This document shows, piece by piece, positions 983-61,833 of a stretch of DNA of 64,000 nt. Under the pieces are notes generated by a model. That model searched no databases and was not told where the DNA came from. It saw nothing but the letters and a program-made list of their open reading frames with translations. Made by a program: the position numbers and the translations under genes. Source of the DNA: a virus (taxonomy: Duplodnaviria > Caudoviricetes); IMG/VR virus record IMGVR_UViG_651324008_000005, positions 2,777 through 66,776 of that record. One strand, written 5' to 3'. Position 1 is the first letter of the stretch, and each line of letters begins with the position of its first letter.

Positions 983-1201
983 ATGGAGACGCAAATGAAC
1001 GAGAGCCTCATGAGGGTGACCGACGTGTCAAAGGTGACGACGTTATCGCGCGCCGAAATCTATCGCAGGGTCAAAGCTGGCACATTCCCGGCGCAGACGC
1101 GGATTTCACATCGGGTTTCTGCGTGGAACAGAAGTGATATTGAGCGATGGATCGCGCAGAAAACGCGTCGCTCTGTTGACCTTTCAGACTTGCTGGTGTG
1201 A
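983..1201 (+). CDS. AlpA-family / excisionase-like winged-HTH regulator
   Basis: LMRVTDVSKVTTLSRAEIYRRVKAGTFPAQTRISHRVSAWNRSDIERWI is the typical AlpA pattern. Ends in VDLSDLLV. Confidence 0.9.
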   Translation: METQMNESLMRVTDVSKVTTLSRAEIYRRVKAGTFPAQTRISHRVSAWNRSDIERWIAQKTRRSVDLSDLLV

Positions 1202-1204
1202 TCA

Positions 1205-1906
1205 ATGGTCGATCTCAGCGACTTGATGGGTGCAGAAGAGCCTGCCGGCCGCCCACGCGGCAGACCTACAAAAGCAGAAGCCGAAGCCCGTTTGCAGAAA
1301 CAGATGCAGGAAGACCTCCCGCACTACACCGAGTTTCGCAAACCTGTCGGTGTGATGTTCATCGCGAACGTGGTCGGTAAGCAGCCGAAGCAAATCCAGA
1401 AGCGACTGGAAAAGTGCCCGGTATCGAAATGGGCCACCCACGGCGGCAAGCAAGTGCCGTTCTACGATTTCATGACTGCCATGTCCTATCTCGTGCCGCC
1501 GCGCGGGAGCATCGAGGACTGGTTCGCTCAGCAGAATGCCGCCAGCCTACCGCCCTATGTCAACAAGATGTGGTGGGATTCTGCTCATCAGCGGAACCGC
1601 GTGATGCTCGCCTCTGGTGACCTCTGGCATACGGAGGATGTGATGCTTGTTCTCGGGCGCGTCGCGATGATGATCCGCCAGGACGTGAAGATGTGGATCG
1701 AAGACCTGCCGGAGAAGGAGTTGCTCAGCAACAAGCAGTATGGCGCCTTAGTCGATGCCACAAACCGGCTTGTTGAAGAAATCCGCAAGACGCTCGTAGA
1801 GATGCCTCGCGAAACTCTTTCCATGACCGCACATATCAAGAGCGAACTGGATAGCAGCGGTCGGATGATTGATGATGCTGACCGGCCTGCGGGAGATGAT
1901 GAGTGA
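1205..1906 (+). CDS. terS: Terminase small subunit (lambda Nu1 / DUF1441-like)
   Basis: 233 aa; position upstream of terL; N-terminal HTH-like segment; helical C-terminus (GDLWHTEDV...) like Nu1-type proteins. Confidence 0.75.
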   Translation: MVDLSDLMGAEEPAGRPRGRPTKAEAEARLQKQMQEDLPHYTEFRKPVGVMFIANVVGKQPKQIQKRLEKCPVSKWATHGGKQVPFYDFMTAMSYLVPPRGSIEDWFAQQNAASLPPYVNKMWWDSAHQRNRVMLASGDLWHTEDVMLVLGRVAMMIRQDVKMWIEDLPEKELLSNKQYGALVDATNRLVEEIRKTLVEMPRETLSMTAHIKSELDSSGRMIDDADRPAGDDE

Positions 1907-2715
1907 CTTCACCTCTTCCCGGCGACACAATCGTAGTTTGGTTCTCGAACGGCGCCGCCAGTGCGGTTGCCGCCTGGGAGACTATCCGTCGCTACGGCGC
2001 GATTTGTGACGTTCGCGTTGTAAATAATCCGATTATTGAAGAAGACGAAGATAATCTTCGGTTTCAGACTGACGTTTCGCGATGGCTAGGTCTGCCGATC
2101 ATCCTCCATGGAAACCCCGATTATCCTTCTAATTCCGCTGTCGAAATATGGGAAAAACGCAAGGCGATGGTGTTTCCGAAAGGGGCACCGTGTACCGTTC
2201 ATGGGAAAAAAGAAGCGCGGCAGGACTACGAAAAACATCATCGAGTTGACTGGCACGTATTCGGGTTCACTGCTGACGAACGGGATCGCCACGAGCGGTT
2301 TATCTTAACCGAGCGTGACAATGTTTTACCGGTCCTGATCGATGGAAACTATACGAAAGATGACTGCGCATCGCTGCTGCAATTCTTCCGAATAGCGCTC
2401 CCTCGAATATATACCCTTGGGTTCCCGAATGCCAACTGCAAGGGCTGCGTGAAGGCTACGAGCCCCACGTACTGGAATCTGGTTCGTCGCATATTTCCTG
2501 ATGTTTTCGCTGCCCGCGCCGAGCAATCTCGCCGCCTTGGAGTTCGTCTGGTTCGTTACAAAGGCGAGCGAATTTTCCTAGACGAGCTGCCTCCGGATGC
2601 TGTTGGCCGCCCTCTTAAAACGATGCGCATTGAATGCGGAATCGTCTGCGAGGAAGACCCGACAGGTGACCGTGAGGAATACTTCAATATCACAGAATGG
2701 TTGTTGGCCGCATGA
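1903..2715 (+). CDS. PAPS-reductase-like (PP-loop, Fe-S cysteine) protein
   Basis: PP-loop-like VVWFSNGAASAVA; GAPCT; PNANCKGCVK; C-terminal CGIVCE. Overlaps terS and terL by 4 nt each. Confidence 0.75.
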   Translation: MTSPLPGDTIVVWFSNGAASAVAAWETIRRYGAICDVRVVNNPIIEEDEDNLRFQTDVSRWLGLPIILHGNPDYPSNSAVEIWEKRKAMVFPKGAPCTVHGKKEARQDYEKHHRVDWHVFGFTADERDRHERFILTERDNVLPVLIDGNYTKDDCASLLQFFRIALPRIYTLGFPNANCKGCVKATSPTYWNLVRRIFPDVFAARAEQSRRLGVRLVRYKGERIFLDELPPDAVGRPLKTMRIECGIVCEEDPTGDREEYFNITEWLLAA

Positions 2716-4895
2716 ACTCACCTCTCCGCCAAATTCGCCCACCGACAATTGATGAACTAATCAGCTCCGTGCGGTTTAAAACGCTCGAGGATATTGTTGC
2801 ATCAGCGTTCGACGAGATGAAGCCGGCTAACCGCATGACGGTGACCGATGCTGCGAAGGAGTATTCGAGAATTGGCACCGGGGGCGGGCATAGCCAACCG
2901 TGGTCCGAAGATCGGACACCCTATCTCAGAGAGCCACAAGACGAAACGACATCGCTTGATTTCACGGGCATGGTATTCTTGGGGCCAGCGCGAACCGGTA
3001 AAACGGTGATGGTCCTGAACATGATCAGTCACACGGTGAAGACTGATCCCACCGACATGCTGCTGGTCCACATGGACCGCGAGAATGCCAGAAAGTGGTC
3101 AAACGGCGATTTAAGTCGATACCTCAAAGCCTCCACGCAAATCCGCGCTGAGCAGCTTACGGCCCGTCAGTACGACAATACGTTCGACAAAACATTCAAG
3201 AGCGGGATGCGGGTACTGGTAACCTATCCTACGCCAGCGAACCTCTCAGGCATCACCGTCAGGATCGGCGCATCGATCGACTATGACCGTTCAGAGGATG
3301 ATATCGGCGGTGAAGGTAACCTCTACGACCTTCTGTCCATGCGCACGACGACATTCAAACGCTTCGGTATGACCATTGCTGAGTCATCGCCGAACCCGAA
3401 TAAGGAAATCCAAGACCCTCGGTGGATGGCCAAGACGCCTCATGAGGCACCTCCAATCCGGGGCATATTCGCGCTATACAATCGCGGTGACCGTCGCAGA
3501 TGGCAGTGGTGTTGCCCTCAGTGTGAGGAGTGGTTTGAGCCGGATTTCAAATTACTTGACTGGGGCGGCCATACGGACCCCATGGAAGCGCGTGATGCGA
3601 CGGTTATGATTTGTCCTTCGCATGGCTGTATCATCAAGCCGCATCAGAAACACGACCTCAACCGCCATGGCCGCTGGATCCGAGAAGGGGAAATGATAGA
3701 ATCCGGCCTGTCTGGCAAGACTGTCGTCCGCCCCGGTATGAAAGTCACGCGGTCAACGATCGCCTCGTTTTGGTTGAAAGGCCCGGCCGCTGGCTATCGC
3801 GAGTGGGGCGATCTCGTGATGCTCGAGCTTAACGCTCTCAAGGAACTCGAAGAGACCGGCGACGACAGTGCGCTCAGGAAGACCCGAACGACTGACCAAG
3901 GGACGTTCTATATCCCGCAGGCCCGTCTTTCCGATTTTGCACCAGAACTGCTGAAAGCCAAGGGCGAGGACTGGGGATCGACACCCGAAGAGCCTCTTGT
4001 GCCAGAAGGCGTGCGATACCTCGTTTCGACGGTCGATATCCAGAAGCGCGCCTTCGTAGTCCAGGTCTTGGGATACACGGCCGATGGTGATCGCGTTGTC
4101 GTCGACATGTTCAAAGTTCGCTTGTCGAATCGCCGCAATGCGAAAGACGAGCGACTGCCGATTGATCCTGCCGCATTCGGTGAGGACTGGGATGTCCTGA
4201 TTCCCGAGGTGATGGGCAAGACATATGAACTGAGCGATGGCAGCGGTCGACGTATGGCTATCCGCGCTACGGCCTCCGACTCCGGTGGGGCGGAAGGTGT
4301 CACTGCCCATGCCTATAACTTCTGGCGCCGGTTGAAGGCGAAACAGGACGGTTCACATCGTCGCTTCATCCTAGTGAAAGGTGAAGCTTCGAAGTCGAAG
4401 CCGCTGGCGCGAACGGAATGGCCCGACTCATCTCAGAAGGGACCTCTTGCCATCGCACGCGGCGACGTGCCGGTGGTGATGCTTAATTCGAACAAGCTCA
4501 AGGATGCCGTTTCCTTGCTTATGTCGCGGCGAATCGCCGACGAGGGTGTCGATGGCGGCATGTTGCGATTCCCCGATTGGGCCGAGGACTGGTATTTTGT
4601 GCAGCTAACTTCGGAAACACGCACAGCCAAGGGGTGGTTGAACACGCGAAAGAAGCGCAACGAAGCATTCGATTTGACCTACTATGCTGAGGGCATTTCC
4701 TTGCGACCGGTCGAGAAAAATGTGCCTTACACGCACTTCGGTTTTGACCGGATAGACTGGAAAAACCCGCCTTCGTGGGCAGAGGAATGGGATCGAAACG
4801 ACCTCGTGTCAGGCGGTACGCGGGACGATGATCCTCCACCAGTAAAAAGCACTGGATTAAGCGCACTGGCAGAGCTTGCAAAAAAATTAGCATAA
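2712..4895 (+). CDS. terL: Terminase large subunit (lambda gpA family)
   Basis: Walker A GPARTGKT; Zn-finger CPQCEEWF...CPSHGC; nuclease STVDIQ and DSGG motifs. ATG 2712 overlaps the upstream TGA. Confidence 0.95.
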   Translation: MNSPLRQIRPPTIDELISSVRFKTLEDIVASAFDEMKPANRMTVTDAAKEYSRIGTGGGHSQPWSEDRTPYLREPQDETTSLDFTGMVFLGPARTGKTVMVLNMISHTVKTDPTDMLLVHMDRENARKWSNGDLSRYLKASTQIRAEQLTARQYDNTFDKTFKSGMRVLVTYPTPANLSGITVRIGASIDYDRSEDDIGGEGNLYDLLSMRTTTFKRFGMTIAESSPNPNKEIQDPRWMAKTPHEAPPIRGIFALYNRGDRRRWQWCCPQCEEWFEPDFKLLDWGGHTDPMEARDATVMICPSHGCIIKPHQKHDLNRHGRWIREGEMIESGLSGKTVVRPGMKVTRSTIASFWLKGPAAGYREWGDLVMLELNALKELEETGDDSALRKTRTTDQGTFYIPQARLSDFAPELLKAKGEDWGSTPEEPLVPEGVRYLVSTVDIQKRAFVVQVLGYTADGDRVVVDMFKVRLSNRRNAKDERLPIDPAAFGEDWDVLIPEVMGKTYELSDGSGRRMAIRATASDSGGAEGVTAHAYNFWRRLKAKQDGSHRRFILVKGEASKSKPLARTEWPDSSQKGPLAIARGDVPVVMLNSNKLKDAVSLLMSRRIADEGVDGGMLRFPDWAEDWYFVQLTSETRTAKGWLNTRKKRNEAFDLTYYAEGISLRPVEKNVPYTHFGFDRIDWKNPPSWAEEWDRNDLVSGGTRDDDPPPVKSTGLSALAELAKKLA

Positions 4896-4896
4896 A

Positions 4897-5157: not shown

Positions 5158-5385
5158 ATGGCGACAATCGCCGAATTACAGGGTTGGCTACGAGAGGCTG
5201 AAAAAGCCCTCCACGAATTGTTGACCGGTAAAGGTGTCGCCGAGGTTCGTGACAGCAACGGCGAGTCCGTCCGCTATACGATGGCAAACGTCTCTCGCCT
5301 TCGTCAGTATATCGAAGATCTCAAATCCCAAATCGCAGGACAGCCGAGAACCCCGCATCGTGTCATGAGGCCGACGTGGGGATGA
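5158..5385 (+). CDS. Head-tail joining protein (gpW family)
   Basis: 75 aa, ALHELLTGKGVAEV...VRYTMANVSRLRQYIEDL; lies directly before the portal gene. Confidence 0.9.
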   Translation: MATIAELQGWLREAEKALHELLTGKGVAEVRDSNGESVRYTMANVSRLRQYIEDLKSQIAGQPRTPHRVMRPTWG

Positions 5386-7073
5386 GAGCGGCTGTTGATC
5401 TTTCAGACCTGATCGGAACCGCCGCTGATGTCTCCACAGCGGTTGCCGATGCGGTGCGTCCGCCCGGTGCTACGGCGGCAGCATCGGGCGGGGTTGCCTA
5501 TGACGGCGCATCGAAAGTTGACCGGCTTGCTCGTTGGCAGCCCGCAATCCGTTCTGCTGACGCGGAAATCCTTCCTGAAAAACAAAACCTTGACGCGCGA
5601 GCGCGCGACACAATTCGCAACGATGCATTTGTGTCCGGTGGCGCTGACATCTATCGCGACTCGATTGTTGGTTCTCGTTATCAACTGAATGCCCGCCCTG
5701 AGACCAAGGTCTTGTGGGGCAAAGAGGATGCGAAGTGGGAAGAAGAGTTTCAGGAAGAAACTGAGACCAAGTTCATGCTGTGGGGCGAAAGCCAGCAGAA
5801 ATGGTCAGACGCTGCCCGTATCAATACCTTCACCGCACAGGTTCGTCTCGGTGTCTGCACGTTCTTCGGCGGCGGGGAAATTCTAGCAAGCGCCGAATGG
5901 ATGCCGGCTGATGGTCGCCCATACCGTTCCGCCGTGCAGATGATCGACCCCGATCGGCTTTCCACTCCGATGGACAAGCTCATGCAGGATTGGTCTCGCA
6001 TCCGAAACGGCGTTGAGCGTGACCGTCGCGGTGCTCCGATCGCCTACCACATTCGGAATTCCCATCCGAACGACGGCCCATATCACGATTTCTCCAGCCT
6101 CTCCGACATGAACTGGACACGGGTTCCGGCTCGCAACCGGTGGGGTCGACCTATGGTCCTGCACGTCTACGAGCAGGACCGGCCCGACCAGTCCCGCGGC
6201 GTGTCCGATATCGTTTCGGCGCTGTCCGAAATGCGGATGACGAAGCATTTCCGACGCACGGAACTGGAACGCGCCGTCGTTGCAGCCAGCTACGCAGCCT
6301 CGGTCGAATCGGAAATCCCTGACGATGTCTTGGCGGCCCTTGGCGGACAGCCTCCCGAGGGTAATGCCACGGTCGAATGGATGACCGCATATCTCGATGC
6401 GATCGCGGCATACAATTCCAATGCAACGAACTTGCACATGGACGGAGCGAAGATTCCCGTATTCGCTCCAGGTACAAAGCTCAAGATTCAGAACACCGGA
6501 GCCACCGGTCCACTTGGCGACAAATACGAGCAGAGCCTTCTGCGCTACATCGCAGCCGCGCTCGGTCTTTCCTACGAGCAGTTCTCCCGCGATTTCACGC
6601 AGACAAACTATTCGTCGGCTCGCGCATCGATCGGCGAAACGCAGAAAGGCATGAATGCCAAGAAGGCGATTGCAGCCGACGGCGTCGCCAACTTCATTTA
6701 TCGCCTCTGGCTTGAGGAAGCGATCAACAAGAACGACCTCGAATGCCTCAAGCGAAAGAACGTCCCGCTCTTTTACGAGGGGTTGAACGCCGAGGCGTAC
6801 TGCGCATGCGAATGGATCGGCGCAGGGCAGGGCCAGATTGACCCGCTCAAGGAAACTCAGGCTGCTGTTCTCAAGGTCAAGAGCGGTTTTTCCACGAAGG
6901 AAGCCGAGATCGCGAAGATGAGCGGTGGCGACTATCGCCGTGTCGCGCGACAGATCCAGCGCGAGCGCGAACTGGATAGCTTCTACGGCAACCCGTCGAT
7001 CTACGACAGCACCGACACCAAGGACATGGAAAACTCACTGTCCGCCACACCAAGAGAAGGAGAGGCGGCGTGA
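5382..7073 (+). CDS. Portal protein (lambda gpB family)
   Basis: RARDTIRNDAFVSG, NYSSARAS and GQGQIDPLKE motifs; ATG 5382 overlaps the gpW stop; N-terminus carries VDLSDLIG. Confidence 0.95.
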   Translation: MRAAVDLSDLIGTAADVSTAVADAVRPPGATAAASGGVAYDGASKVDRLARWQPAIRSADAEILPEKQNLDARARDTIRNDAFVSGGADIYRDSIVGSRYQLNARPETKVLWGKEDAKWEEEFQEETETKFMLWGESQQKWSDAARINTFTAQVRLGVCTFFGGGEILASAEWMPADGRPYRSAVQMIDPDRLSTPMDKLMQDWSRIRNGVERDRRGAPIAYHIRNSHPNDGPYHDFSSLSDMNWTRVPARNRWGRPMVLHVYEQDRPDQSRGVSDIVSALSEMRMTKHFRRTELERAVVAASYAASVESEIPDDVLAALGGQPPEGNATVEWMTAYLDAIAAYNSNATNLHMDGAKIPVFAPGTKLKIQNTGATGPLGDKYEQSLLRYIAAALGLSYEQFSRDFTQTNYSSARASIGETQKGMNAKKAIAADGVANFIYRLWLEEAINKNDLECLKRKNVPLFYEGLNAEAYCACEWIGAGQGQIDPLKETQAAVLKVKSGFSTKEAEIAKMSGGDYRRVARQIQRERELDSFYGNPSIYDSTDTKDMENSLSATPREGEAA

Positions 7074-18231: not shown

Positions 18232-18232
18232 G

Positions 18233-34813: not shown

Positions 34814-35092
34814 TCAGGGGTCGAGCATCGTCATGCCGAGCGCGGCCATGTACGTCTGCAAGATGGTTTCCTCTTCGAGGCGCTCGTTGGCATCCTTTTT
34901 GCGAAGCTGAATGATGGTGCGGATGGCCTTCGTGTCGTAGCCGCGGCCCTTGGCCTCGCCCATCACGTCTTTGATGTCTCCCTGGATCGCTGCTTTCTCT
35001 TCCTCGAGGCGCTCGACGCGCTCAATGAACTGACGAAGTTCGGCGGCAGCGATCGTCTCGACCGTTTCGCCGCTGTTGTGTCCGATAGACAT
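34814..35092 (-). CDS. gapR: GapR / DUF2312 (UPF0335) nucleoid-associated protein homologue
   Basis: [50 protein letters not shown]...[14 protein letters not shown]. Confidence 0.92.
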
Positions 35093-37194: not shown

Positions 37195-38093
37195 GCCTCG
37201 GTTTCCTTTGCTTGGCTCGCGACGGCATTGTCGATCGCATCCCTGAGCGATTTGCCGGTCCAAAAATCGTTGCGGACGCGCACTACCCAGTCTCGTGTCG
37301 CATCGTCCTGTGAAATTGAAACGGAAGTATCCGTGCCGTTTTCAACGTAGCCGCAGAGATCACGCAAGGCGTCCAAGCGAACCGTGTCCCCGTGAAGCGG
37401 CTTCGGCTTCTCACCGGCATCCATGTGTTTCGCGGTCGCGCGCTTTTTCCCTTCCGCCTGTGCCTTGTCGATGGCACGCGTCAGATCGCCAGCGGCTTTC
37501 ACACCGTCGCCGCCGTGTTTCTTCAGCGTGGCCATGGCGAGCGTCGCAGCGACCTGACCTGCGGCCACCAGAGTGGTGACGGCAGCCGGCGCGGCCTGCA
37601 GTTCAAGAAGCTCGATGATCCACTGGCGAGCGAGACCGGTCTTCTGCTGGATATCTTTTTCCGTCCACCCGAGATCGATGAGACGCTTGAAGACGCGCGC
37701 CTGTTCGATTGGTGTCAGCGGCTTGCCGGAATTACGCACGATCTGACTGAAAACGCGGTCAGCTTCGCTCGAATACCGATCTTCGGTCTGCACCGGAACG
37801 CTTTTGATTTCGGCTCCGAGGTGCTCGATCGCATACATCGTCGCACCGTGACGGCGATGACCGTCGGAGATGAACGCCTTGCCATCTTCCGTATAGACGG
37901 TGAGTGCCTGCTTGACGCCGACCTGCGAGATAGATTCAGCAAGCGCCAAATCATCCGGGTCTTCTGGATTGAAGTTGACGGTTCGGCAGTTCCAGTCGAC
38001 CTTCACATGCAGGTCGCGCGGGTCCATGCGATAGATGTCGGAGCGGCCGACGGCGAGCGATTTGATGACGCCCTGATTTGATGCAGCGGTCAT
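37191..38093 (-). CDS. ParB/Srx-like domain protein with HTH
   Basis: LAESISQVGVKQAL...ISDGHRR, RNSGKPLTPIEQARVFKRL and an HTH. Start refined to 38093. Confidence 0.85.
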   Translation of the reverse strand: MTAASNQGVIKSLAVGRSDIYRMDPRDLHVKVDWNCRTVNFNPEDPDDLALAESISQVGVKQALTVYTEDGKAFISDGHRRHGATMYAIEHLGAEIKSVPVQTEDRYSSEADRVFSQIVRNSGKPLTPIEQARVFKRLIDLGWTEKDIQQKTGLARQWIIELLELQAAPAAVTTLVAAGQVAATLAMATLKKHGGDGVKAAGDLTRAIDKAQAEGKKRATAKHMDAGEKPKPLHGDTVRLDALRDLCGYVENGTDTSVSISQDDATRDWVVRVRNDFWTGKSLRDAIDNAVASQAKETEA

Positions 38094-38323: not shown

Positions 38324-38602
38324 TCACACGAGCAGGTCGTCGAGATCGACCGGCTTTGGTTTGACAGGCGGAGAGTCGATCAGGTCATCCAGGTCGACGA
38401 TTGGTTTGGCGGAGGGCGGCGCGGTAGCGATCCGCCACGTAGCACCGAAGTGTCTGACACCCCGGCCGTCCTCGACGAGCACATTGGTTTCGCCGTAGTG
38501 CTTGATGACCACACCGTCGATCGGCTCAAGTCCGTAGGCGTTGCGGTATGTTACCTTCGTGCCGACGGGCCAGAATGCGTTGGGGCGATTTTCCGCTGCC
38601 AT
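38324..38602 (-). CDS. SH3-like small protein with two C-terminal VDLDDL motifs
   Basis: WPVGTKVTYR...DGVVIKHYGETNVLVEDG; tail IVDLDDLIDSPPVKPKPVDLDDLLV. Confidence 0.75.
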   Translation of the reverse strand: MAAENRPNAFWPVGTKVTYRNAYGLEPIDGVVIKHYGETNVLVEDGRGVRHFGATWRIATAPPSAKPIVDLDDLIDSPPVKPKPVDLDDLLV

Positions 38603-41396: not shown

Positions 41397-41596
41397 CGTT
41401 CCGGTCTCCGCAGATCGGCAAGCGCACGGGTCAGGTCCATGCTTGCCCGTTTGATTGCGCCTTGTTCACGCGGGAAATTGTCCCGCATCAGCGTGCTATA
41501 GCCACAGTCATACGGTTCTGGCGTCGGCAATGCTTCGGCGCGTGCGATGAACCGACGAGCCTCCAAAACAGCAATTTGAAGTTTTTGCCTGTTCAT
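41393..41596 (-). CDS. Hypothetical protein
   Basis: 67 aa; coupled to neighbours. Confidence 0.65.
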   Translation of the reverse strand: MNRQKLQIAVLEARRFIARAEALPTPEPYDCGYSTLMRDNFPREQGAIKRASMDLTRALADLRRPER

Positions 41597-42093
41597 TGCC
41601 CGCTCCGTTTCCAAAGGACGTTGCCTTCCAGGTCTTCGATCGACGTGAGGTGCACATTCAACTTGCCATGGTCCTCGGGCTTACATTTGTCGGTCGGCTG
41701 GATCGGATAGAATCCGCCGTCAACCGTTCTCATGATCCAGACGGTTGGGAGGAGCGAGGCGAGGGGTTCAAAGCGGCCGTCCTCAAACTCCTCGCGCGGA
41801 CGAACCCACAGGGAACCGTCGTCGATCGAGCGGTAGATCGCGACCTCGCGCATGTCAGTAGATGCGCCGGTATCGTATTCAAACCACTTCTCCGCCTGCA
41901 TCTTGCCGACGCCGAGCAGTTCGTATTCTGTGCCGCGTTTCTTGTGGCGATGCGTTGGCGTTGGCGCAGTCGCAGCGCTGTGTTTCATCACCAGTTCGAT
42001 GATGTCGTTGCGATCCACGTCGTGCCGCTTGCCATCGAACCAACCTGCCAGCAGGTCATCCACGTCTTTCGAAATTTCGTCTCTGTTTGTCAT
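41593..42093 (-). CDS. Hypothetical protein with DUF1653-like motif
   Basis: THRHKKRGTEYELLG...VAIYRSIDDGSLWVRPREEFEDGRF. Confidence 0.75.
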   Translation of the reverse strand: MTNRDEISKDVDDLLAGWFDGKRHDVDRNDIIELVMKHSAATAPTPTHRHKKRGTEYELLGVGKMQAEKWFEYDTGASTDMREVAIYRSIDDGSLWVRPREEFEDGRFEPLASLLPTVWIMRTVDGGFYPIQPTDKCKPEDHGKLNVHLTSIEDLEGNVLWKRSGQ

Positions 42094-47052: not shown

Positions 47053-48228
47053 CTAACTCATTACGTTAGCCAGCAAAGCCGCCCCATACAAAGCAATCCC
47101 AATCGAGACCGGCATGAAATACCATTTGCCGCGCAAGCGTTCCCATAGGCCTGAATCCGGCTTATAGGACACTTCGCTCGATACCGTCGGCACGGTTGCC
47201 GGTTGAACGGCTGGACGCGCCACGCCAACACTATGCAGCGGCTTGGAGCCACGAGACACGGCAACCTTGCAAGCCGGCATAGGCGCGCCGCTGGCGTTCG
47301 GCACGGACACAATAGCTTGCCCGGTTCCAAGCCCCGCAATGTCGGCAGCCGTGATATTGCCCGGCATGGTATCGGCTGCCGCCTTCAATGCCTTTTGGTG
47401 GACTGAAGTCGAGCCGCGCAACGCGTGCTGGATCCTGGTCGCCAGTTGTCCGCTAATGACGTTCGGCAGGTCAGACGGCGCTTGCGTCACATAAATCAGG
47501 CCGACTCCCTTAGATCGAATAAGCCGCGTGATTTGCTCGATACGTTGCACAATGGCAGGGCTTGCGCCGTCGAAAACCAAATGCGCCTCGTCGATCATGA
47601 CCATAAGACCAGGCGTGCCAGCGTCGCCAATTTCACCTAGGCCGCGATAGAGCGACTCCAGCACATGCGCGACAAACGCGCCATAGAGGCCGGGCAGGCG
47701 GGTTAGGTCTGAGACCGCATAAACGGTTATGCCTGCCGTGTCCCTTGGATCATGCCGGGCGCTGCCGAAAGCCCACGCTGCGCCGCGCTCGAGCCGCAAC
47801 ATGGCACGTTGAACGGCAGAAACGGAAACAGGCGATATCAGGCCATAGGAATCGGAAAGGTTCGCCCGCGTGGCGTCGTTCAAGAGCTGTCGCAAGTCCT
47901 GCAGCGTGGCGACGGCGCGACCGGTATCTTCAGCCCATGCAAGAGCAATGGCCAATGCGCCCGCTTGCGCTTCGGATAGATTCAAGGCGCGTGCGATCAA
48001 GTCCGCCCCCAAATCATCGATGCGCATTTGCGGGTATATCAGAGTCGAGCCTAGCGACTCCAAGTCGCCTTTTGCATCCAGCACCAAAACCGGACACGGG
48101 CAGCGTTCCGCGATTGCTCCTAGCGTCGTGGTTTTACCCGTGCCCGTGGCGCCGAAAATGCCGACATGGCGCGACAGATAGCGATAGGGAATCTGTGCGC
48201 CCGGTCCGATGGAAAGGGAATAGGTCAT
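47053..48228 (-). CDS. HerA-like / DUF853 (YjgR-type) P-loop ATPase
   Basis: RHVGIFGATGTGKTTT, VLDAKGDL, MIDEAHLVFD, RLIRSKGVGLIYVTQAPSDLP and QHALRG. Confidence 0.9.
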   Translation of the reverse strand: MTYSLSIGPGAQIPYRYLSRHVGIFGATGTGKTTTLGAIAERCPCPVLVLDAKGDLESLGSTLIYPQMRIDDLGADLIARALNLSEAQAGALAIALAWAEDTGRAVATLQDLRQLLNDATRANLSDSYGLISPVSVSAVQRAMLRLERGAAWAFGSARHDPRDTAGITVYAVSDLTRLPGLYGAFVAHVLESLYRGLGEIGDAGTPGLMVMIDEAHLVFDGASPAIVQRIEQITRLIRSKGVGLIYVTQAPSDLPNVISGQLATRIQHALRGSTSVHQKALKAAADTMPGNITAADIAGLGTGQAIVSVPNASGAPMPACKVAVSRGSKPLHSVGVARPAVQPATVPTVSSEVSYKPDSGLWERLRGKWYFMPVSIGIALYGAALLANVMS

Positions 48229-53760: not shown

Positions 53761-56175
53761 CTAGTCGATTTCGTCAGGTCGCGTATAAACGCGGCATTTT
53801 CCGTATTTTTTATTGATCTCCAGACCTGTGACCATGCCCTTTGATCTGTCCCACCCGACGATCTGCATAGCGCGGCCGATCTTGATGGTTTCGGTGTGAG
53901 GAACGGAACCGTCTCGCCCCATCATCTCTCGCCATATCTGAGCGATGCAGGTATCTTCGCGGTAAATCTTCGGTAGATCGTCGTCCAGGTCATCGAATTC
54001 AGCCCCTAGCGGAGTGTCCAGCCACGCGGCTATTTCGCCAGCCAGTGTCTCTTCAGAAGTCTCGACACGACGGCTTTCCTGCATCTCGTGGGCTATCTGA
54101 GCAGCTTCGTCCTGCATGTAGAGCGGCAGGGCTGGTAGATGTGCGTAATCCTTCGACATCTGCTGATAGATCGACACCGCCTCGGCCCAAATCTGCATGA
54201 CGTTGGCCCGGAATTTCAGATTGTCGATCTGCCTGTCGCCGGGAAGGTTGCAGACGATAGGCCAGAAGCGCCGGCCACCGGTCTGGTCTCGCAGGTACTC
54301 GCGGTCGTTGGTCGATCCGATGAAGATGCACTGGCGACCGAACTCTTTCGCGCGCTTCTCCCACGCCAAGCGGGCTTTGTCGTGCGTGCGGCTAACGAAT
54401 GCCTTCAGGTCGTTGACCTCGGATCGCTGCATGGCGGAAAGCTCACCCAGTTCAAGGATCCATTTGCCCTGCATCACCTCGATCATCTGCTTTGGGTCAC
54501 CGACATCACCCGTCAGTTCGCCATACCATTGGAGCCCGAGGACTTCGATGAAGGTGGATTTACCCTTGCCCTGAACACCTTCCAGGATCGGGACGAAATC
54601 AAACTTGTGACCGGGCTGGAAGATGCGCGCCACGGCGCCGACGAGAGTGAGAAGGGCGGCTTGTCGGTTGTAGGTGTTGTCCTCGCAGCCGAGATAGTCG
54701 ACGAACATCGTCTCTGCGCGGGGAACCCCGTCCCACTCGACGGACGTGATGACTTCCTTGACCGGGTGAAACGTCCGCTTGTGGGCGGCCATGTCGATCG
54801 CGCCGTGTAAATCGCGGTCGGAAACCTTGATGCCGTAGCCTTGAAGCTGCGTTTTTGTCTCGATCAGCGATCTGATGGCGATATCGTGGCTGTCGGTCCA
54901 GTTATCACCGTTCAGTTCGTCTTTCACCTTCCAGATCGAACTGTCGAGGTTGACCGGCTCGTAAGCAGCGTCGCGCTTCTTTTTCGCCCGCTTAGGTGCT
55001 GCTCGAAGCACCACTTCCTGTGCAAATTCGTTGAAATGGGCGATCCCGCGGACGCGCAGATCGTTTTCGACGATGAGATTGATATTCGGAAGGGTGGTTT
55101 TTAACTCGCCTTCCTCGTTGCGATGAAATCGCTGCATCCAGTTGGGGTCGATCTCGTCGACAATCTCCGCTTTCGCGGGAACTGGGGAGGGCGCATCGCC
55201 TAAAAGGTCGGAGAGATCAACGACCGGTTTGTCAAAGTCAGTTTCGATGTCGAGATCGAGATCCTGCGACATGCGATTGCTGTTTGCGGCCTGGATCAGC
55301 GTGCGGAAGGTGACCGGGTGCGGCTTGCCCTTGAAGGAATTCCACCTGACCTCGGAATATTTACGGTCAAACTTGGCAGATTGCTCGGACCAATCGCACC
55401 AGGCCTCGAAGCCTTCATCCTCGCCACGGAACTGGTGATGGAAGGCCATGCCGACGGTCAGCCAGTAATCGCGATCTTCGACCCAGTCTTCCGGCAGGTC
55501 GTCGAGGATGGCTTGAATTTCTTCTTCGTCGATGTCGAGTGGGTCGGCGCGGACGATTGCAAAAAGGTCGTCATCGTCAGGCTCGGCAGCCGCTGCGCGG
55601 GCGCCGCTGATCTTTGCGACCATCAGTTCTGTGAAATCCAGATCGAGCGGGCGCTCCCACCGATAGGGTTTACCGGTGTCGGGATGGATTGAAGGTGGAA
55701 TGGCGACTTGGGTTCCGGTTCCCTTGAGGTCGATTTCCCAGTCGTTCTTTTTTACATCACGACCCTTTTTCGGGTCGAATACCATCTCGAAGCCGTCAGA
55801 CTTCCGCAGCTTTTTGCTGGCGAGAGGCTCGGTCGAGAGAAAGTAGATGTGGCGGCTCTCTCCGCCCGAGCCTGAGATAACCCGAGGCAGGTTTTTCGCT
55901 GCCGGCATCATTTCTAACAAGGCTGACCATGCCTCGTTTGCTTTGGCAGGTTTGCGGATATCGAGGTCGATGACATGGAGATATAATCCGTCGATTTTTG
56001 ACGGTTCTCCGGTTCTCAGGCCGACATTGTTGCCCTGACGATATGAGCCTCGAAGCTGCTCGGCCGAGTAGCGCGGTGCGGTAGACCAATAGTCTTCGAT
56101 CGGCATCTTGTCGCGAGGTCGCAGCCAATGCAGCGCGGCACCCGCGTCGACGAGAGCGAGGTTTTCGGTGAGCAT
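53761..56175 (-). CDS. Primase-helicase (Prim-Pol, PriCT-2 and VirE-type P-loop domains)
   Basis: HVIDLDI, QVAIPPSIHPDTGKPYRW, DYWLTVGMAFHH, Walker A EGVQGKGKST, ELGEL and RDQTGGRRFWPI. Confidence 0.93.
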   Translation of the reverse strand: MLTENLALVDAGAALHWLRPRDKMPIEDYWSTAPRYSAEQLRGSYRQGNNVGLRTGEPSKIDGLYLHVIDLDIRKPAKANEAWSALLEMMPAAKNLPRVISGSGGESRHIYFLSTEPLASKKLRKSDGFEMVFDPKKGRDVKKNDWEIDLKGTGTQVAIPPSIHPDTGKPYRWERPLDLDFTELMVAKISGARAAAAEPDDDDLFAIVRADPLDIDEEEIQAILDDLPEDWVEDRDYWLTVGMAFHHQFRGEDEGFEAWCDWSEQSAKFDRKYSEVRWNSFKGKPHPVTFRTLIQAANSNRMSQDLDLDIETDFDKPVVDLSDLLGDAPSPVPAKAEIVDEIDPNWMQRFHRNEEGELKTTLPNINLIVENDLRVRGIAHFNEFAQEVVLRAAPKRAKKKRDAAYEPVNLDSSIWKVKDELNGDNWTDSHDIAIRSLIETKTQLQGYGIKVSDRDLHGAIDMAAHKRTFHPVKEVITSVEWDGVPRAETMFVDYLGCEDNTYNRQAALLTLVGAVARIFQPGHKFDFVPILEGVQGKGKSTFIEVLGLQWYGELTGDVGDPKQMIEVMQGKWILELGELSAMQRSEVNDLKAFVSRTHDKARLAWEKRAKEFGRQCIFIGSTNDREYLRDQTGGRRFWPIVCNLPGDRQIDNLKFRANVMQIWAEAVSIYQQMSKDYAHLPALPLYMQDEAAQIAHEMQESRRVETSEETLAGEIAAWLDTPLGAEFDDLDDDLPKIYREDTCIAQIWREMMGRDGSVPHTETIKIGRAMQIVGWDRSKGMVTGLEINKKYGKCRVYTRPDEID

Positions 56176-56194: not shown

Positions 56195-56479
56195 TCAGGG
56201 AATGGGGAGGAACGGAATCAGGTCGGTTTTAGTGAGTCGGTCCTTTTCGTCCGGTCGATCGGCATTGGCTGAAACCTCCAGAAGCGACGAAATTGCCTTC
56301 GGAGATAACTTGTTCTCATGGAACCAGCGATAGATCGTGAAACGAGCGTTTTCAGTGGCTTCGCTTAACAGGCGCGTATTCACCTTCCCATCGTGAACGT
56401 ACTCCGATGGGAGCTTGTCGCGCAGGAGGCTGTAAAGCGCACCTTCGTACAGCTCCTTGGTATTCGTAGGCTGATCCAT
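56195..56479 (-). CDS. Cro/XRE-like small DNA-binding protein
   Basis: TRLLSEATENARFTIYRWFHENKLSP HTH-like; divergent from the replication operon. Confidence 0.6.
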   Translation of the reverse strand: MDQPTNTKELYEGALYSLLRDKLPSEYVHDGKVNTRLLSEATENARFTIYRWFHENKLSPKAISSLLEVSANADRPDEKDRLTKTDLIPFLPIP

Positions 56480-56647: not shown

Positions 56648-57121
56648 ATGAGCTTAGAAGCCGCCGTTACCGAACTGACTTCGTCCATCAACAAGCTGAT
56701 CAATATTACCCAGGCGCTGCACGATCTCCGCGCCGACGCCATTGAGAAGACCACGGCAGCCGCCGCGACCGGGTCCAAGTCCACGACGAAAGCCGACAAG
56801 ACTGACAAGACTGCCGCCGACAAGGGTGCAATCAGCGACAATCCTGACAACCGCGTCAATCCGATCGACGCGCTGACCGACGCCGCCAGCGATTACATCG
56901 GCGCCAGCGATCGCGAAGAAGAGCGCGCTGCTCGTAAGGAGAAGGTCAAAGCTCTTCTCAATCACGAAAAAATCCGCGATCCCAAGGTTGAAGCCGGCAA
57001 GGGCCTATTCAGCACGATCCAGCCCGAAGCCCACGATCTTTTCAAGTCGCAGATCGCGAAGCTCAAGGAAAAGGGCGACATCACGACGCCGAAAAAGGCT
57101 GACGACGACCTCCTTGACTGA
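56648..57121 (+). CDS. Hypothetical protein (first gene of the replication operon)
   Basis: MSLEAAVTELTSSINKLI; GGAG RBS; ends ADDDLLD. Confidence 0.8.
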   Translation: MSLEAAVTELTSSINKLINITQALHDLRADAIEKTTAAAATGSKSTTKADKTDKTAADKGAISDNPDNRVNPIDALTDAASDYIGASDREEERAARKEKVKALLNHEKIRDPKVEAGKGLFSTIQPEAHDLFKSQIAKLKEKGDITTPKKADDDLLD

Positions 57122-57259: not shown

Positions 57260-57273
57260 TTCAGGAGAATGAC

Positions 57274-57465: not shown

Positions 57466-57468
57466 TCC

Positions 57469-58767
57469 ATGAAGGCGCACGCTCGATTATCACCCTCATC
57501 GGCAGATCGGTGGATGACCTGCACGGCCTCGGTCGCGCTGATCGACCACCTGGTTAGCAAGGGAGAGCTGAGCGAAAGTGACCTCGATGAGGATTGCAAT
57601 GCGCCGGCCGTCGAGGATGAAGATGAGCAGGATTACTCCGCCTATGAAGGCGAGACGCTCGATCTAAACAGGGATTCCACCGCCTATTCGGCGGAAGGAA
57701 CCGTTATGCATGAGATCAGGGAACACTGCCTTGATCTCGGATGCGATCCGCATCACTTCGTCGGAGCCACGCTGACCGCCGACGGTCATTCGTTCGAGAT
57801 TGACGACCATATGGCCGATCGTCTGGTTGCCGGCATCGACTGGATCCGCCAGCACACCAGCAATCCGCTGGTTGAGATACGCGTTGACCTGTCACGCTGG
57901 CTGCCCGGTCAGTTCGGAACCTGCGACACGGCGTTCCTGTATCGAAAGATGCTCGGGGTCAGCGACTATAAAGATGGGGCAGGGGAGCCGGTTGAGGTTG
58001 TCGGCACAAGGCAACTCCGTCTCTACGCCCTCGGCGCTTGGGAACATCTTGGTCGGCCGGAAGTTGAGGATGTCGTTCTCAATATCGACCAGCCTCGCGC
58101 GGGCGGGATGAAGTTTTGGGAAATCACGCTCGATGAGCTGCTGGAGTTCGGCGAGGAAGTGAAGCGGGTATTCTCGCGGATCGAGCGCGGCGACGTGGAA
58201 TTCGTTCCCTCGACAAAGGGCTGCCGCTGGTGCCCCGTGCGCAAGACGAAGCGTGGTTGCGCGGCGCGCAATCAGTGGCTCATGCAGATGTTCGGCAGTG
58301 CGCTGCTCGACCCGAGCGAGCCTGAGCCGAAGTTCAAGGACCCTGCGCAGATGCCGCGTGCGCTGCGCTTCTACATCGTCAATCATTCCAAAGCCGCACG
58401 TGCCTGGCTTACCGAACTGCACCAGCAGTCGCTTCAGGCGGCGCTGGATGGCGACCCTGATCCCGGTTCCAAGGCGATCGATGGCGGGCTCGGAAATAGG
58501 TATTTCACCGCGCCTGCGGAGGCGGAGGCCATTCTGGTCGGCGCGTTGGGGGAGAAGGCTTACAAGCCTAAACAGCTTATCGGGTTCACCGATATCGACA
58601 AGCTCATGAAGCCGGGCAAGCGAAAAAAGGGCATGCCCGAACCGTGGGATGCTCTGCAGGAACTGGTCGACCGACCAGACGGGAAACCGAAACTGGTTCC
58701 CGTAGACCATCCAAAGCCGGCGTTAGAGGTCACGCCGATTGCGGATCAATTTGACGACCTCGACTAA
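57469..58767 (+). CDS. DUF2800 PD-(D/E)XK (Cas4-like) exonuclease
   Basis: HARLSPSSADRWMTCTAS, AEGTVMHE, FGTCD...VSDYKDGAG, QLRLYALG and GCRWCP. Confidence 0.92.
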   Translation: MKAHARLSPSSADRWMTCTASVALIDHLVSKGELSESDLDEDCNAPAVEDEDEQDYSAYEGETLDLNRDSTAYSAEGTVMHEIREHCLDLGCDPHHFVGATLTADGHSFEIDDHMADRLVAGIDWIRQHTSNPLVEIRVDLSRWLPGQFGTCDTAFLYRKMLGVSDYKDGAGEPVEVVGTRQLRLYALGAWEHLGRPEVEDVVLNIDQPRAGGMKFWEITLDELLEFGEEVKRVFSRIERGDVEFVPSTKGCRWCPVRKTKRGCAARNQWLMQMFGSALLDPSEPEPKFKDPAQMPRALRFYIVNHSKAARAWLTELHQQSLQAALDGDPDPGSKAIDGGLGNRYFTAPAEAEAILVGALGEKAYKPKQLIGFTDIDKLMKPGKRKKGMPEPWDALQELVDRPDGKPKLVPVDHPKPALEVTPIADQFDDLD

Positions 58768-58812
58768 CCACAGCCGCTGCAACCGAACTACCGTGAAAAA
58801 GGAAACCGACAA

Positions 58813-59535
58813 ATGGCAATCGAAGAAAAGTCCGACGGTCGCACCGTCCAGTTGAAGCGCGTTCGCCTCTCCTTCACCGACTCCCTGAAGGACAAAAAGA
58901 AGACGAGCGACGATCCCAAGGCCCTTCCGAAACACGGCTTGAACGTGATCAACGAGAAGGATTCGCCCTATTTTGATGAGAACAACAAGAAGATCATCGC
59001 TGCGATGAAGGCTGCTGGCGAAAAGGAATTCAAAAATCCTGACGCCTATAAGACCATCGCTGAAGATAACCCCAAGCGTGTTTGCTTTAAAAAGGGTGAG
59101 CGATTCAAGAACAAGGAAGGCAAGGTTTATGCGGGTTACGAAGGTAACACTGCATTTTCCGCATCAGGCCCGTCGGGCGGCCAGAAGCGGCCAAAACTTC
59201 TGGATCGTCGGAAGCGGATTCTCCGTGAACAGGCTGCAAAAGAGCAGTTGCAGGCGGGGAAGGTGTTCGAAGAAGCCGAAATCCTCGATATCTTCTACGG
59301 TGGCGTCATTGCCGACGTGATTGTTTCGTTCTTCGGCACGAAAAAGGGTTCGAACGGCATCTTCGCTTCTGCCGAAGCTATTCGCTCTCACGAGGAAGGC
59401 GAACGCATGGGCGGCGGTATCTACGTCGACGCAGACGACTTCGACGATCTCGAAGAAGATGACAGCTTCGACAGCGGTCCATCGACCTCCTCGGAAAAAG
59501 AGACCAAGTCCTCTGACGACGACTTCGACTTCTGA
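58813..59535 (+). CDS. DUF2815 single-stranded DNA-binding protein
   Basis: [10 protein letters not shown]; FYGGVIADV; acidic tail ending DDDFDF. Confidence 0.88.
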
Positions 59536-59544
59536 TCCAGCGGA

Positions 59545-59573
59545 ACTGGCGACGCAGAAACGTCGCCAGTTTC
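59545..59573 (+). terminator. Rho-independent terminator after ssb
   Basis: ACTGGCGACG-cagaaa-CGTCGCCAGT followed by Ts. Confidence 0.75.
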
Positions 59574-59599
59574 AACTTTCGAGAGGAATTTCTTGAGCC

Positions 59600-61216
59600 A
59601 TGGGTGCGAAGCCATATGCCCTCTACAACGAGAACGACGAACACGCCGCAGATTGGCTCGAAAACCTTATTGCCCTTGGAGTCATTGCGCCGGGCATTGT
59701 CGATCGACGAAGCGTCGAAGATTTGCGTGGGGATGACCTTAGAGGATTTCGACAGGTTCATCTTTTCGCTGGCATCGGAGTGTGGAGTTACTCCCTCCGT
59801 CGCGCTGGCATCTCGGATGATACTGCAGTTTGGACTGGAAGCTGCCCCTGCCAACCTTTCTCCGCGGCAGGCAAAGGAGCAGGGATGGATGACGAGCGGC
59901 ATTTATGGCCTGCGGTCCTCCATCTCCTCGGAGAGTGCCGCCCTGACATCTTTCTTGGAGAACAGGTTGCAAGCGCTGACGGCCTCGGTTGGCTCGACCT
60001 TGTACAAACTGACCTGGAAGCGGCGAGCTACGCCATCGGGTCGGTTGATACCTGCTCTGCGGGCAGTGGCGCACCGCACATCCGGCAAAGACTCCGTTTC
60101 AGTGCCTACGATATTCGATCTGCCTCAAGTCGGCGATCCGACCTGTCGATCCTCAGACGGGACTTCGGGTCCGGATTACGCGGGAGGATTATCGCTTCCG
60201 ACAACAGCACAATTGTCGAACTGGGGAACTCCCACGGCGACGGAACCGGGCGGAACGGCCGAGGCGTATGTCGCTCGCTCAATCGAAAAAACGGGGAACC
60301 TGGCGCCGACGATGCTAGCGCATCAAGCGCCATTGGCGGGATGGACTACAGCTTCAGCGAGGGACTGGAAGGATTCCGGAGCGGACATATCTCCGAGACC
60401 GGACAACGGCAAAGAGCGACTGGATCAACTCCCACGACAGGCGAATTTGGCCGGTTGGCCGACGACAGATGCAAACATGGGATCGGGAGGCCGGAAGCCG
60501 AAAGACCAACTCAAACTCGTTCGGGAGAATGGCAGCAAAGTCCAGTTTACGATCAATCATGCTGCATTGTTGAGCGGCTGGCCCACGTCGACGACGACCA
60601 ACAACGGCAAGGGCGAGACACCGGAGGCGCGTCAGGCGAAGGGATTTGGTCTGAACCTCGCGGACGCGACGAGTTTGACGGGATGGTCGACACCCACCGT
60701 GGCGGAGAGGGAGCGACGACCGGAAGTGATCGAGAAGATTGCACGGGATCGCCTCGAGAAACACGGTCAGACGACAGTGCCGCTCTATCACTGCGAACAG
60801 GCTCAATTGGCCGCGTGGCAGACGCCGACACTGGACAATTTCCGGAAGAGGGGCGGGGATCGCAGCGACGAGTTGGGGCCGCAGGAACTGGTCGACTGGA
60901 CGAAGGTGTCTTTGTTGGCCGAATTGAACGGCCCGGCCCGACTAACGGCTTTTGGCGAGATGCTGATTGGCTCTTTTGCCGAGATGGAAAGTGGCGGCCA
61001 GTTGAGCCCTGCACATTCCCGTTGGTTGATGGGGCTGCCTTCCGTTTGGGATCTGGCAGCGCCTTTGAAGGCAAGTCGCGCCAAGGGATGCTCAAAGGTT
61101 ACGGGAACGCCGTCGACGCGGAAGCGACGCGCGTCTTCATTGAGGCTTGTGCCGACTTCTTTGCTGATTTGGATGCTCGCCGCGTGAAGGCGGAATTGAT
61201 TGGAGACCTGCTATGA
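59600..61216 (+). CDS. C5-cytosine DNA methyltransferase, alpha (catalytic) polypeptide
   Basis: Motif [37 protein letters not shown] and X LKGYGNAV; motif IX absent from this frame. Confidence 0.9.
59889..61187 (+). CDS. Overlapping-frame beta polypeptide of the C5-MTase (motif IX plus six W-x-T repeat modules)
   Basis: AAAGGAG SD at 59873-79, 9 nt before ATG 59889; 432 aa open in the +1 frame; motif-IX-like [18 protein letters not shown] near its C-terminus. Confidence 0.8.
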
Positions 61217-61833
61217 AATTCACCGACCTCATGATCGACTTGGAAACCCTCGGAACTGCTGTGAACGCGCCCGTGGTTGCAATCGGCGCCGTTTTCTTCA
61301 ATCCCGAAACCGGTGAACTCGGTGAGACCTTTGATGCCGCGATCGATGTTGAAGACGCAATGCGCTACGGCAAGGCTTCAGGGTCAACGATTCGCTGGTG
61401 GCTCGGGCAGGGCGACGCGGCGCGCCAGAAGGTCGTGCGCGGCAAGCATCCGTCGCACCTCGTTTTCACGAAATTCCACGAGTTCTGCCTGAAGCACGGC
61501 GACAACGTTAAGCCTTGGGGCAATGGTGCTTCGTTCGACATCTCGATCCTCGAATATGCGTTCGGGCGGATTATTGAGAAATCGGCCCCATGGAAATTTT
61601 GGAACGTCTGCGACTGTCGGACGATCAAGCGTCTCGCCGACGGGATTGTTACTTTCGATGAAAAGCTCGAGGGAACGGCACATACGGCACTCGATGATGC
61701 CAAACACCAAGCTAAGTGGGTTTCCGTATACTGGAGGGGGTTACGTCGTCGAGTTCATCCAACACATGAGGAGAGGCAGGCTGCGCCTATGCCTGTCGTC
61801 AAGACATCATCGGACCTGCTTGACGGTCTCTGA
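61213..61833 (+). CDS. DEDDh 3'-5' exonuclease (RNase T / exo VIII-like)
   Basis: LMIDLETLG, WGNGASFDISIL and HTALDDAKHQA. Confidence 0.9.
   Translation: MKFTDLMIDLETLGTAVNAPVVAIGAVFFNPETGELGETFDAAIDVEDAMRYGKASGSTIRWWLGQGDAARQKVVRGKHPSHLVFTKFHEFCLKHGDNVKPWGNGASFDISILEYAFGRIIEKSAPWKFWNVCDCRTIKRLADGIVTFDEKLEGTAHTALDDAKHQAKWVSVYWRGLRRRVHPTHEERQAAPMPVVKTSSDLLDGL

Follow-up and report, generated by a model that had tools for sequence, protein, structure and literature searches.

Short docking peptides organise replication in bacteria, through the tip of the protein that binds single-stranded DNA (SSB) and the motifs that bind the sliding clamp, and in phage T7, through the tails of gp2.5 and gp4. 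In T7, only gp2.5 (..EDGDF) and gp4 (..NDTDF) have such tails; both end ..DF, and their partners are T7 DNA polymerase and the DNA-binding cleft of the SSB itself. Crystals of Enc34 ORF6, of two DUF2815 proteins and of gp2.5 show the tail placed in the DNA-binding sheet of an adjacent molecule (PMC5686142). Here we describe a short acidic peptide, VDLSDL, and looser versions of it that are borne by many unrelated proteins of one provirus. The DNA analysed (the window) is a stretch of 64,000 nucleotides that covers nearly all of a 66.8-kb IMG/VR provirus (IMGVR_UViG_651324008_000005; record label G000) and starts at position 2777 of that record. The peptide, hereafter the tag, had first been noted in an original prediction made from the letters of the window alone.

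A six-frame search of the window, combined with Pfam and PHROGs annotation, recovered five copies of VDLSDL and two of VDLDDL, on the carriers that had been predicted. The copy at 1175-1192 (+) closes an AlpA/excisionase-like protein (VDLSDLLV, 1175-1198; gene 995-1201, a 72-residue open reading frame), whose AlpA domain ends at residue 57. The copy at 1208-1225 (+) falls within residues 2-9 of the small terminase (VDLSDLMG, 1208-1231; phrog_141; gene 1205-1906), the core of which begins near residue 50. That at 5394-5411 (+) forms residues 5-10 in the N-terminal leader of a lambda-family portal (VDLSDLIG, 5394-5417; gene 5382-7073), with the Pfam match starting at residue 50. The copy at 32488-32505 (-) belongs to the C-terminal tail of an N6/N4 DNA methylase (gene 32482-33942); this tail, IADLIGETVDLSDLI (32485-32529, -), comprises a full tag, which makes up the last seven residues, and a half copy. 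The fifth, at 55204-55221 (-), forms residues 319-324 of a Prim-Pol/PriCT2/VapE primase-helicase (gene 53761-56175), in a linker (VDLSDLLG, 55198-55221) whose flanking domains end at residue 297 and start at residue 477. Both copies of VDLDDL, at 38333-38350 (-) and 38381-38398 (-), are in the proline-rich tail of a 92-residue protein of no known family (gene 38324-38602), where VDLDDLID and VDLDDLLV are 16 residues apart (38327-38398). Neither hexapeptide was found outside the coding frames of plausible genes anywhere in the window.

The seven DNA copies are unlike one another at most synonymous positions: Ser is encoded by TCA, AGC or TCC, and Leu by CTT, CTC, CTG, CTA or TTG. The AlpA and small-terminase copies, which are separated by only 15 nucleotides across the gene junction, are identical at 12 of 18 bases, and every difference is synonymous. 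Since the synonymous sites are scrambled, it is the peptide that is conserved and not a DNA site; together with the occurrence in coding frames only, this rules out a DNA-level repeat such as a site, a mobile element or a recombination linker. Based on composition, 0.0025 copies of VDLSDL are expected, and across 1000 rounds of shuffling within each protein, no hexapeptide was ever shared by more than three. Thus, selection acts on the tag as a peptide, as had been proposed from the codon differences, and the estimate that far less than one exact match would arise by chance was borne out.

Looser forms were evaluated in the same way. Eleven provirus proteins end in the looser acidic class, compared with 0.27 expected and a shuffle maximum of four, so that the tag stands well above shuffled controls both as an exact hexapeptide and as a C-terminal class. 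The looser C-terminal versions that had been listed were located. Three of them close small genes: ASDDLLV (33956-33976, -) ends an 83-residue protein of no known family (gene 33953-34204), SEEELLV (34204-34224, -) an 81-residue protein, likewise of no known family (gene 34201-34446), and DPDDLLV (34454-34474, -) a conserved 113-residue protein (gene 34451-34792). ADDDLLD ends a conserved 157-residue protein of the replication module (gene 56648-57121); this tail is real and lies at 57098-57118 (+), the position 56648 given for it earlier being the start of the gene. QFDDLD (58747-58764, +) ends a DUF2800/PD-(D/E)XK (Cas4-like) nuclease (gene 57514-58767), and SSDLLDGL (61807-61830, +) ends a DnaQ-like 3'-5' exonuclease (gene 61213-61833). 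SDDDFDF (59512-59532, +) is the end of the disordered acidic tail of the phage's T7-gp2.5-type SSB (PF10991; gene 58813-59535). A possible N-terminal copy, KDVDDLLA (42046-42069, -), is a weaker match at residues 9-16 of a 166-residue protein (gene 41593-42093).

Every exact copy lies outside Pfam domains, at a terminus or in a linker. In AlphaFold2 models, portal residues 1-43 and the SSB tail both have a predicted local distance difference test score (pLDDT) below 50, so the portal tag is on a tether that is predicted to be flexible. The placement at termini or in flexible linkers that had been claimed for the copies therefore holds.

Conservation was evaluated in RcPescado, in five IMG/VR proviruses taken whole (including G002-G005), and in prophages of Mesorhizobium, Manganibacter and Aquamicrobium. 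The closest named relatives of the provirus proteins are found in prophages of Agrobacterium, Rhizobium and Mesorhizobium; the closest cultured relatives are 68-kb Rhodobacter capsulatus phages of cluster RcD, for example RcPescado (Casjensviridae), with a portal identity of 62%. The provirus has head genes like those of lambda, which encode a gpA-type large terminase, gpW, a gpB-type portal, an S49 protease, gpD and gpE, and a replication module of the Enc34/Chi type, with a primase-helicase, a DUF2800 nuclease, a DUF2815 SSB, an exonuclease, a polymerase and an SNF2 helicase. The lineage is that of Casjensviridae-like phages with lambda-type heads. Two genes required correction of the earlier reading: 61833-63239 encodes the SNF2-type helicase, and the DNA polymerase is at the left edge of the window (1-790, -; phrog_1252), where its untagged 3' part continues into the provirus (whole gene, L001:248-2290, -).

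Across these genomes, the tag has the general form [DE]-[LF]-x-[DE]-L-[LFIM], usually followed by Gly or one last residue; it is acidic, with an LxxLL-like hydrophobic spacing. The small terminase has an N-terminal tag in 7/7 genomes of the clade, and also in more distant relatives; the portal has one in 7/7, and the integrase ends in a tag or a tag-like tail in 7/7. In RcPescado, the portal starts ..NNTDLSDLLG and the small terminase MTTDLTDLF, and the integrase ends ..TDLSDIFGDTELLV, a methylase ..TDLSDLFLTNATTNDDLLV and a 92-residue protein ..TDLSDLFQ. The methylase C-terminal tag and the primase linker tag are kept in relatives, the former in each orthologue's own flavour and the latter in two copies in G003 and G004. 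All six orthologues of the 113-residue protein have an acidic-LL(V)/LF(V) tail. Five of six Cas4-like nuclease orthologues end ..FDDL(D/N), and the sixth has FDDLD five residues before its end. Among the nearest 120 portal homologues, approximately 70 match acidic x-D-L-[ST]-[DEH]-L-L-G at the N-terminus; the remainder have mostly a non-acidic ..LLG form (e.g. ..NLSHLLG or ..NLNNLLG), and some homologues have two leader tags in tandem (P0015, P0020, P0027, P0038, P0040 and P0057 were singled out for tandem or non-acidic leader tags). Tandem copies 9-17 residues apart are common, which suggests, from the sequences, a reader with several sites.

The tag is portable. It occurs on non-orthologous proteins in the relatives named above; the tagged small proteins vary as a set, and the N-terminus of the SNF2 helicase is tagged once (G004). 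Outside the clade, orthologues of the integrase and AlpA end without the tail, so that the tag is an add-on. Retention in orthologues and independent gain on other proteins, the two outcomes that would support the predicted motif, were thus both found. Where termini were read, no tag was present on the large terminase in more than ten genomes or on the polymerase in nine.

The provirus integrase ends ..RDDLLEGLL. Its gene (G000 1-1200) is at the left end of the provirus (G000 1-3566), and the gene after it, on the other strand, encodes the polymerase. The RcPescado polymerase gene is within the replication module, far from the integrase, so either the gene order is rearranged here or the record is permuted.

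The flavour of the tag is private to the genome. V-D-L-S-D-L is the form of the window provirus and its closest relatives; N-D-L-S-D-L-L that of G003 and G004, and of the Mesorhizobium prophage on some carriers only; T-D-L-[ST]-D-L-[FL] that of RcPescado and G005; and D-F-x-D-L-L that of G002. Six proteins within 20 kb of L023 share D-D-F-[DE]-x-[LF]-L. Copies on unrelated proteins of one genome are more alike than copies on orthologues in other genomes. Using program-extracted tags from five protein families in ten genomes, and permuting genome labels within families, the mean identity between families within a genome was 0.68, versus 0.56 for permuted labels (p <= 5e-5). The co-variation persisted when the two closest genome pairs were left out. 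As the synonymous sites are scrambled, the sharing of flavours reflects selection, not recent copying. The simplest cause that we infer is one reader per phage, whose specificity would drift with the lineage. Conservation and co-variation fit the phage-wide docking code of the original prediction; the host readers it proposed fared less well, as discussed below.

The tag is related in type to SSB tails. The SSB of the window is of the T7-gp2.5/Enc34 type: it matches PF10991, the profiles of PDB entries 4klk and 4jg2, and, using Foldseek, 5odl (E 7e-10) and 1je5 (E 4e-5). Its tail, residues 202-240, has a pLDDT of about 40, and many of its homologues end ..DDDDLLG. In the window, the primase-helicase, the Cas4-like nuclease, the exonuclease and the 157-residue protein all bear tails related to that of the SSB. 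Ruegeria phage V18 has the tag as ..[DE]-D-[LI]-L-G, at the C-terminus of the DUF2815 SSB, the Cas4-like nuclease, the primase, a 182-residue replication protein, a helix-turn-helix (HTH) protein and further proteins, and at the N-terminus of the small terminase and the portal. Of the 72 proteins predicted for Salmonella phage Chi (JX094499; loci L077-L079), which is the family's type member, 11 end ..D-[DE]-E-V, compared with 0.24 expected. Such tails close the SSB, the primase, the Cas4-like nuclease, the SNF2 helicase, an RdgC-like protein, a methylase and small proteins, as well as the small terminase, which in Chi is tagged at its C-terminus; we found no description of these tails in the literature. 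In both V18 and Chi, the flavour of the SSB tail is that of the other tagged proteins. In the SSB-tail class the motif is the very end of the protein and closes with an aromatic or hydrophobic residue, whereas VDLSDL is found near the N-terminus of the small terminase and the portal and inside the primase. VDLSDL would thus work like a T7-type SSB tail but is not strictly a member of that class. The view that best fits this comparison of sequences is that of a docking peptide of the SSB-tail type, which in this phage family has spread through the proteome.

The explanation that we consider best, with a probability of about one half, is that VDLSDL represents the local flavour of a portable docking peptide for one co-evolving receptor, probably phage-encoded and linked to the replisome. 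The tag would be held on disordered tethers and would be classed with the acidic tail of the SSB that the phage encodes, which would be the archetype. In this lineage, the class would have spread to the small terminase, the portal leader, the integrase, the excisionase, DNA methylases, the primase-helicase, nucleases and several small proteins. All copies would plug into one receptor evolving together with the phage, and the effect would be to gather at one place the proteins that act on the phage genome in integration and excision, replication, methylation and the start of packaging. The receptor would most likely be a replisome component, with DNA polymerase as first candidate and the DNA-binding groove of the SSB as second. 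The polymerase is placed first because it is the sole core replication enzyme never seen tagged and because of the analogy with T7. On the portal, the tag lies in the segment aligned with the cleaved leader of lambda, and might be a removable tether.

Several points weigh against this docking reading. That the tag binds, that it has a single reader and which protein that reader might be are what we infer, and the named receptor is a guess. In the AlphaFold2 monomers of the portal and the SSB, the tag or tail was not docked onto its own protein. The SSB tail of the window, ..DDDFDF, differs in flavour from VDLSDL, so there may be two readers. The V18 polymerase had no BLAST match to that of the provirus, despite a tag system of the same kind in V18, and the Chi portal is untagged. 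The lineage-specific flavours could track differences between hosts. Finally, by analogy with lambda, where the leader is removed in head assembly, a head-assembly partner of the portal tag (scaffold, protease or capsid protein) would fit at least as well as a replisome partner.

The alternative that survives best, although we consider it unlikely, is that the tag is read by a conserved host hub, such as the beta sliding clamp, a protein that interacts with SSB or some other factor associated with DNA, by which phage DNA enzymes would join the host machinery. Almost all carriers act on DNA, and the central Ser/Asp and closing hydrophobic pair of the tag recall the clamp motif QL[SD]LF. The tail of a neighbouring regulator, ..DLIPF.., also resembles the bacterial SSB tail, ..DDDIPF. 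However, a host genome gave little sign of such use. In the 8.7-Mb genome of Mesorhizobium sp. AR07, which carries a related prophage, a DNA pattern for D-L-[ST]-D-L-L had 17 matches. Seven of these were inside the 62-kb prophage; the other ten, across the remaining 8.7 Mb, were internal to ordinary proteins and similar in number to the matches of a reversed-pattern control (eight). With matches outside the prophage at control level, the host proteome does not use the motif. Moreover, flavours are uniform within a genome and differ between related phages of related hosts, as in the Mesorhizobium versus the Aquamicrobium prophage and in RcPescado versus V18. Judged from these sequences, the AR07 control and the differences in flavour between phages of related hosts favour a phage-encoded reader, without proving it.

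Details of the tag also fit a clamp poorly. The clamp motif (QL[SD]LF/QLxLxL) starts with Gln and is hydrophobic at positions 2, 4 and 5 (or 2, 4 and 6), whereas in all copies of the tag position 1 is Asp or Glu, never Gln, and the hydrophobic residues are at positions 2, 5 and 6. The DNA polymerase, which a clamp-client reading would have tagged, has untagged termini in the nine genomes read. At the spacing described above, tandem copies could probably not span the distance between the two pockets of a clamp dimer. Among the annotated parts of the phage, no gene was recognised as encoding a clamp. The host readers suggested originally (the clamp, PopZ and ClpX adaptors) lack support.

The regulator mentioned above is a 94-residue HTH protein (gene 56195-56479) that ends ..TDLIPFLPIP (56198-56227, -), like the bacterial SSB tip. 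D-L-I-P-F is kept in three orthologues, and that of RcPescado is looser, D-V-L-P-Y. This tail may be a second, distinct docking peptide.

Slightly less probable than a host hub is the absence of any common reader: each DNA-binding protein would have its own acidic, DNA-mimicking, auto-inhibitory tail, and the likeness between tails would come from old small duplications and similar constraints. Competition of an acidic tail with DNA is known for T7 gp2.5 and has been suggested for Enc34 ORF6 (PMC5686142). In the small terminase, AlpA and the integrase, basic DNA-binding segments often adjoin the tag, and the closeness of the AlpA and small-terminase copies at their gene junction would suit a duplication. 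Nevertheless, unrelated DNA-binding surfaces would not fix six or seven positions, including the flanking V/N/T and the hydrophobic spacing, amid scrambled synonymous sites. In addition, site-specific DNA binding is not known for the portal or for several of the small proteins.

The portal copy bears on another doubtful alternative, about as improbable as the last or a shade more so, in which the tag is a head-targeting or cargo-loading peptide. It would bind the scaffold-protease or the inner face of the capsid, recruit the portal to the nascent head and possibly load enzymes for co-injection. In an hhalign profile comparison, lambda gpB aligned with the portal family from residue 3, with ..IPTLLGPDG.. 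falling on ..DLSDLIGTA..; when residues 1-50 of gpB were compared with the N-terminus of the portal by BLASTP, nothing aligned. In the lambda sequence record, 22 leader residues are annotated as cleaved; removal of a 21-22-residue peptide from B has been described, with an unknown effect on its interactions (PMC3224144). By this analogy, the portal tag may be a removable or temporary tether. The portal tag is also the most widely conserved copy. Most carriers are replication, recombination and terminase proteins, and no virion proteomics of these phages turned up in the literature. What counts against head targeting is that the small terminase, a universal carrier, is not a head-interior protein and that excisionase and integrase would be odd cargo. 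In Chi, the SSB, RdgC-like protein, helicase and primase are tagged and the portal is not. The scaffold-protease is, moreover, itself strongly acidic, with a net charge of -21.

By far the least probable of the alternatives is a degron or protease-recognition signal timing the turnover of early and packaging proteins, for although the tag is at termini and lambda Xis, O and CII are textbook cases of protease control, the signals known to be recognised by ClpX, FtsH and Lon have a non-polar or basic character, whereas the tag is acidic, does not make a non-polar or basic extreme C-terminus, occurs also N-terminally, in a linker and in tandem, and is present on the SSB and the portal, and the polymerase and a PAPS (3'-phosphoadenosine 5'-phosphosulfate)-reductase-like protein have separate, more degron-like ..AA endings. 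These latter endings are ssrA-like and separate from the acidic tag. Polymerase C-termini are ..AA in five of six orthologues (VVAA, LRAA, SLAA, AMAA and LALAA) and ..LVA in the sixth; the PAPS-reductase-like protein, encoded between the terminase genes (1903-2715, +), ends ..WLLAA.

Other candidate readers were considered. A HerA-like ATPase (47053-48228, -; PF05872/PF01935), which is conserved in the close clade and has a hydrophobic, membrane-anchor-like C-terminus, was rejected as a universal reader, being absent from V18 and AchV4 by BLAST. A GapR-like DNA-binding protein (34814-35092, -; PF10073, E 6e-33) was rejected on its absence from AchV4 by BLAST. Its RcPescado orthologue is annotated as DsbA-like, and V18 encodes a 98-residue protein, by appearance a GapR-like homologue, that is tagged at its N-terminus. 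The SNF2 helicase was rejected because it is itself tagged in G004 and Chi, and N-terminal and internal copies rule out a PDZ-type reading of C-terminal ..LLV/..DEV. The large terminase may still be the reader of the small-terminase tag; it explains the other carriers poorly. It is made less attractive by its own tag-like N-terminal helix (..RPPTIDELI..), by the removal of the lambda leader before packaging and by the tags on RdgC, SSB and others in Chi. In the large terminase (2697-4895, +) and its homologues (P0124-P0243), this N-terminal helix is conserved, as is a C-terminal ..LAELAKKLA; several homologues of about 1070-1095 residues have an intein-type insertion (PF14528). A ParB-like protein (37191-38093, -; phrog_1033, PF17762 HTH_ParB) is encoded two genes downstream of the 92-residue protein with two tags and had no BLAST match in the eight other genomes compared.

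Returning to the docking peptide with one co-evolving receptor, a broader and more tentative version, which we regard as possible but rather improbable, is that each lineage has a private code of tag and reader. One phage receptor would assemble integrase and excisionase, replisome, methylases, small terminase and unprocessed portal into a genome factory, the portal tag would be cut at head maturation, and the code would form a compatibility barrier to the exchange of modules. Such a barrier between the modules of related phages would follow from the co-evolution of tag and reader. If one reader exists, it would show how excision, replication, modification and packaging are spatially coupled in a mid-sized temperate phage, and would account for the maintenance of the tails across a whole phage family. 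The seven-residue peptide would then be a handle for finding the organiser, and the flavour of the tag a sequence marker of module compatibility in mosaic phage genomes. The cultured relatives, namely the Rhodobacter RcD-cluster phages, Ruegeria phage V18 and Salmonella phage Chi, make the idea directly testable.

The concept itself has precedents, in the tails of T7 gp2.5 and gp4, the SSB tip of bacteria and the tails that bind clamps. The original statement that no similar motif was known thus has to be narrowed: acidic T7-type SSB tails are a precedent, and the spread of one code to integration, methylation and packaging, with the terminase, portal, integrase and methylases among its carriers, is new and undescribed for any phage within the literature searches made. 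Full-text searches found no published description of the tag peptide strings or of a phage-wide tag, and the genome paper on the RcD-cluster Rhodobacter phages makes no mention of it.

Among the known systems, the T7 tails are of the same kind in being disordered acidic peptides with a hydrophobic end, common to several replication proteins of one phage, and the SSBs share a structural type. In T7, however, there are two carriers, both C-terminal, and the terminal residue is Phe; here there are a dozen, including the small terminase, the portal leader, the integrase, the excisionase and methylases, some tagged N-terminally or in a linker, and the hydrophobic spacing is LxxLL-like. The bacterial SSB tip, ..DDDIPF, a docking hub for many genome-maintenance proteins, is likewise a short linear motif of acidic and hydrophobic residues, borne on a disordered tail, through which DNA transactions are organised. 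The SSB tip is one carrier with many readers, whereas the phage has many carriers with presumably one reader, and a free C-terminal carboxylate cannot be required for the phage tag. In T4 and RB69, the polymerase gp43, gp33 and gp55 bind the gp45 clamp by their tails, and QL[SD]LF is the corresponding bacterial motif. In these systems, as proposed for the tag, a short hydrophobic-acidic peptide on unrelated carriers is read by one hub, there ring-shaped, and links replication to a late function; the consensus and spacing differ, and in the present phage the polymerase is untagged and the annotated parts showed no recognisable clamp gene.

On the structural side, the lambda gpB leader aligns with the portal tag, and both are in a disordered N-terminal extension of a PF05136 portal. 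The lambda leader is non-acidic and is not known on other lambda proteins, and a cleavage in the phages described here would be putative. The T4 capsid-targeting sequence and the cargo-loading peptides of encapsulins are portable terminal peptides on head-interior cargo. They resemble the tag in being carried by unrelated proteins of one particle-forming system and differ in their carriers, which are mostly replication, recombination and packaging-initiation proteins in the phage described here.

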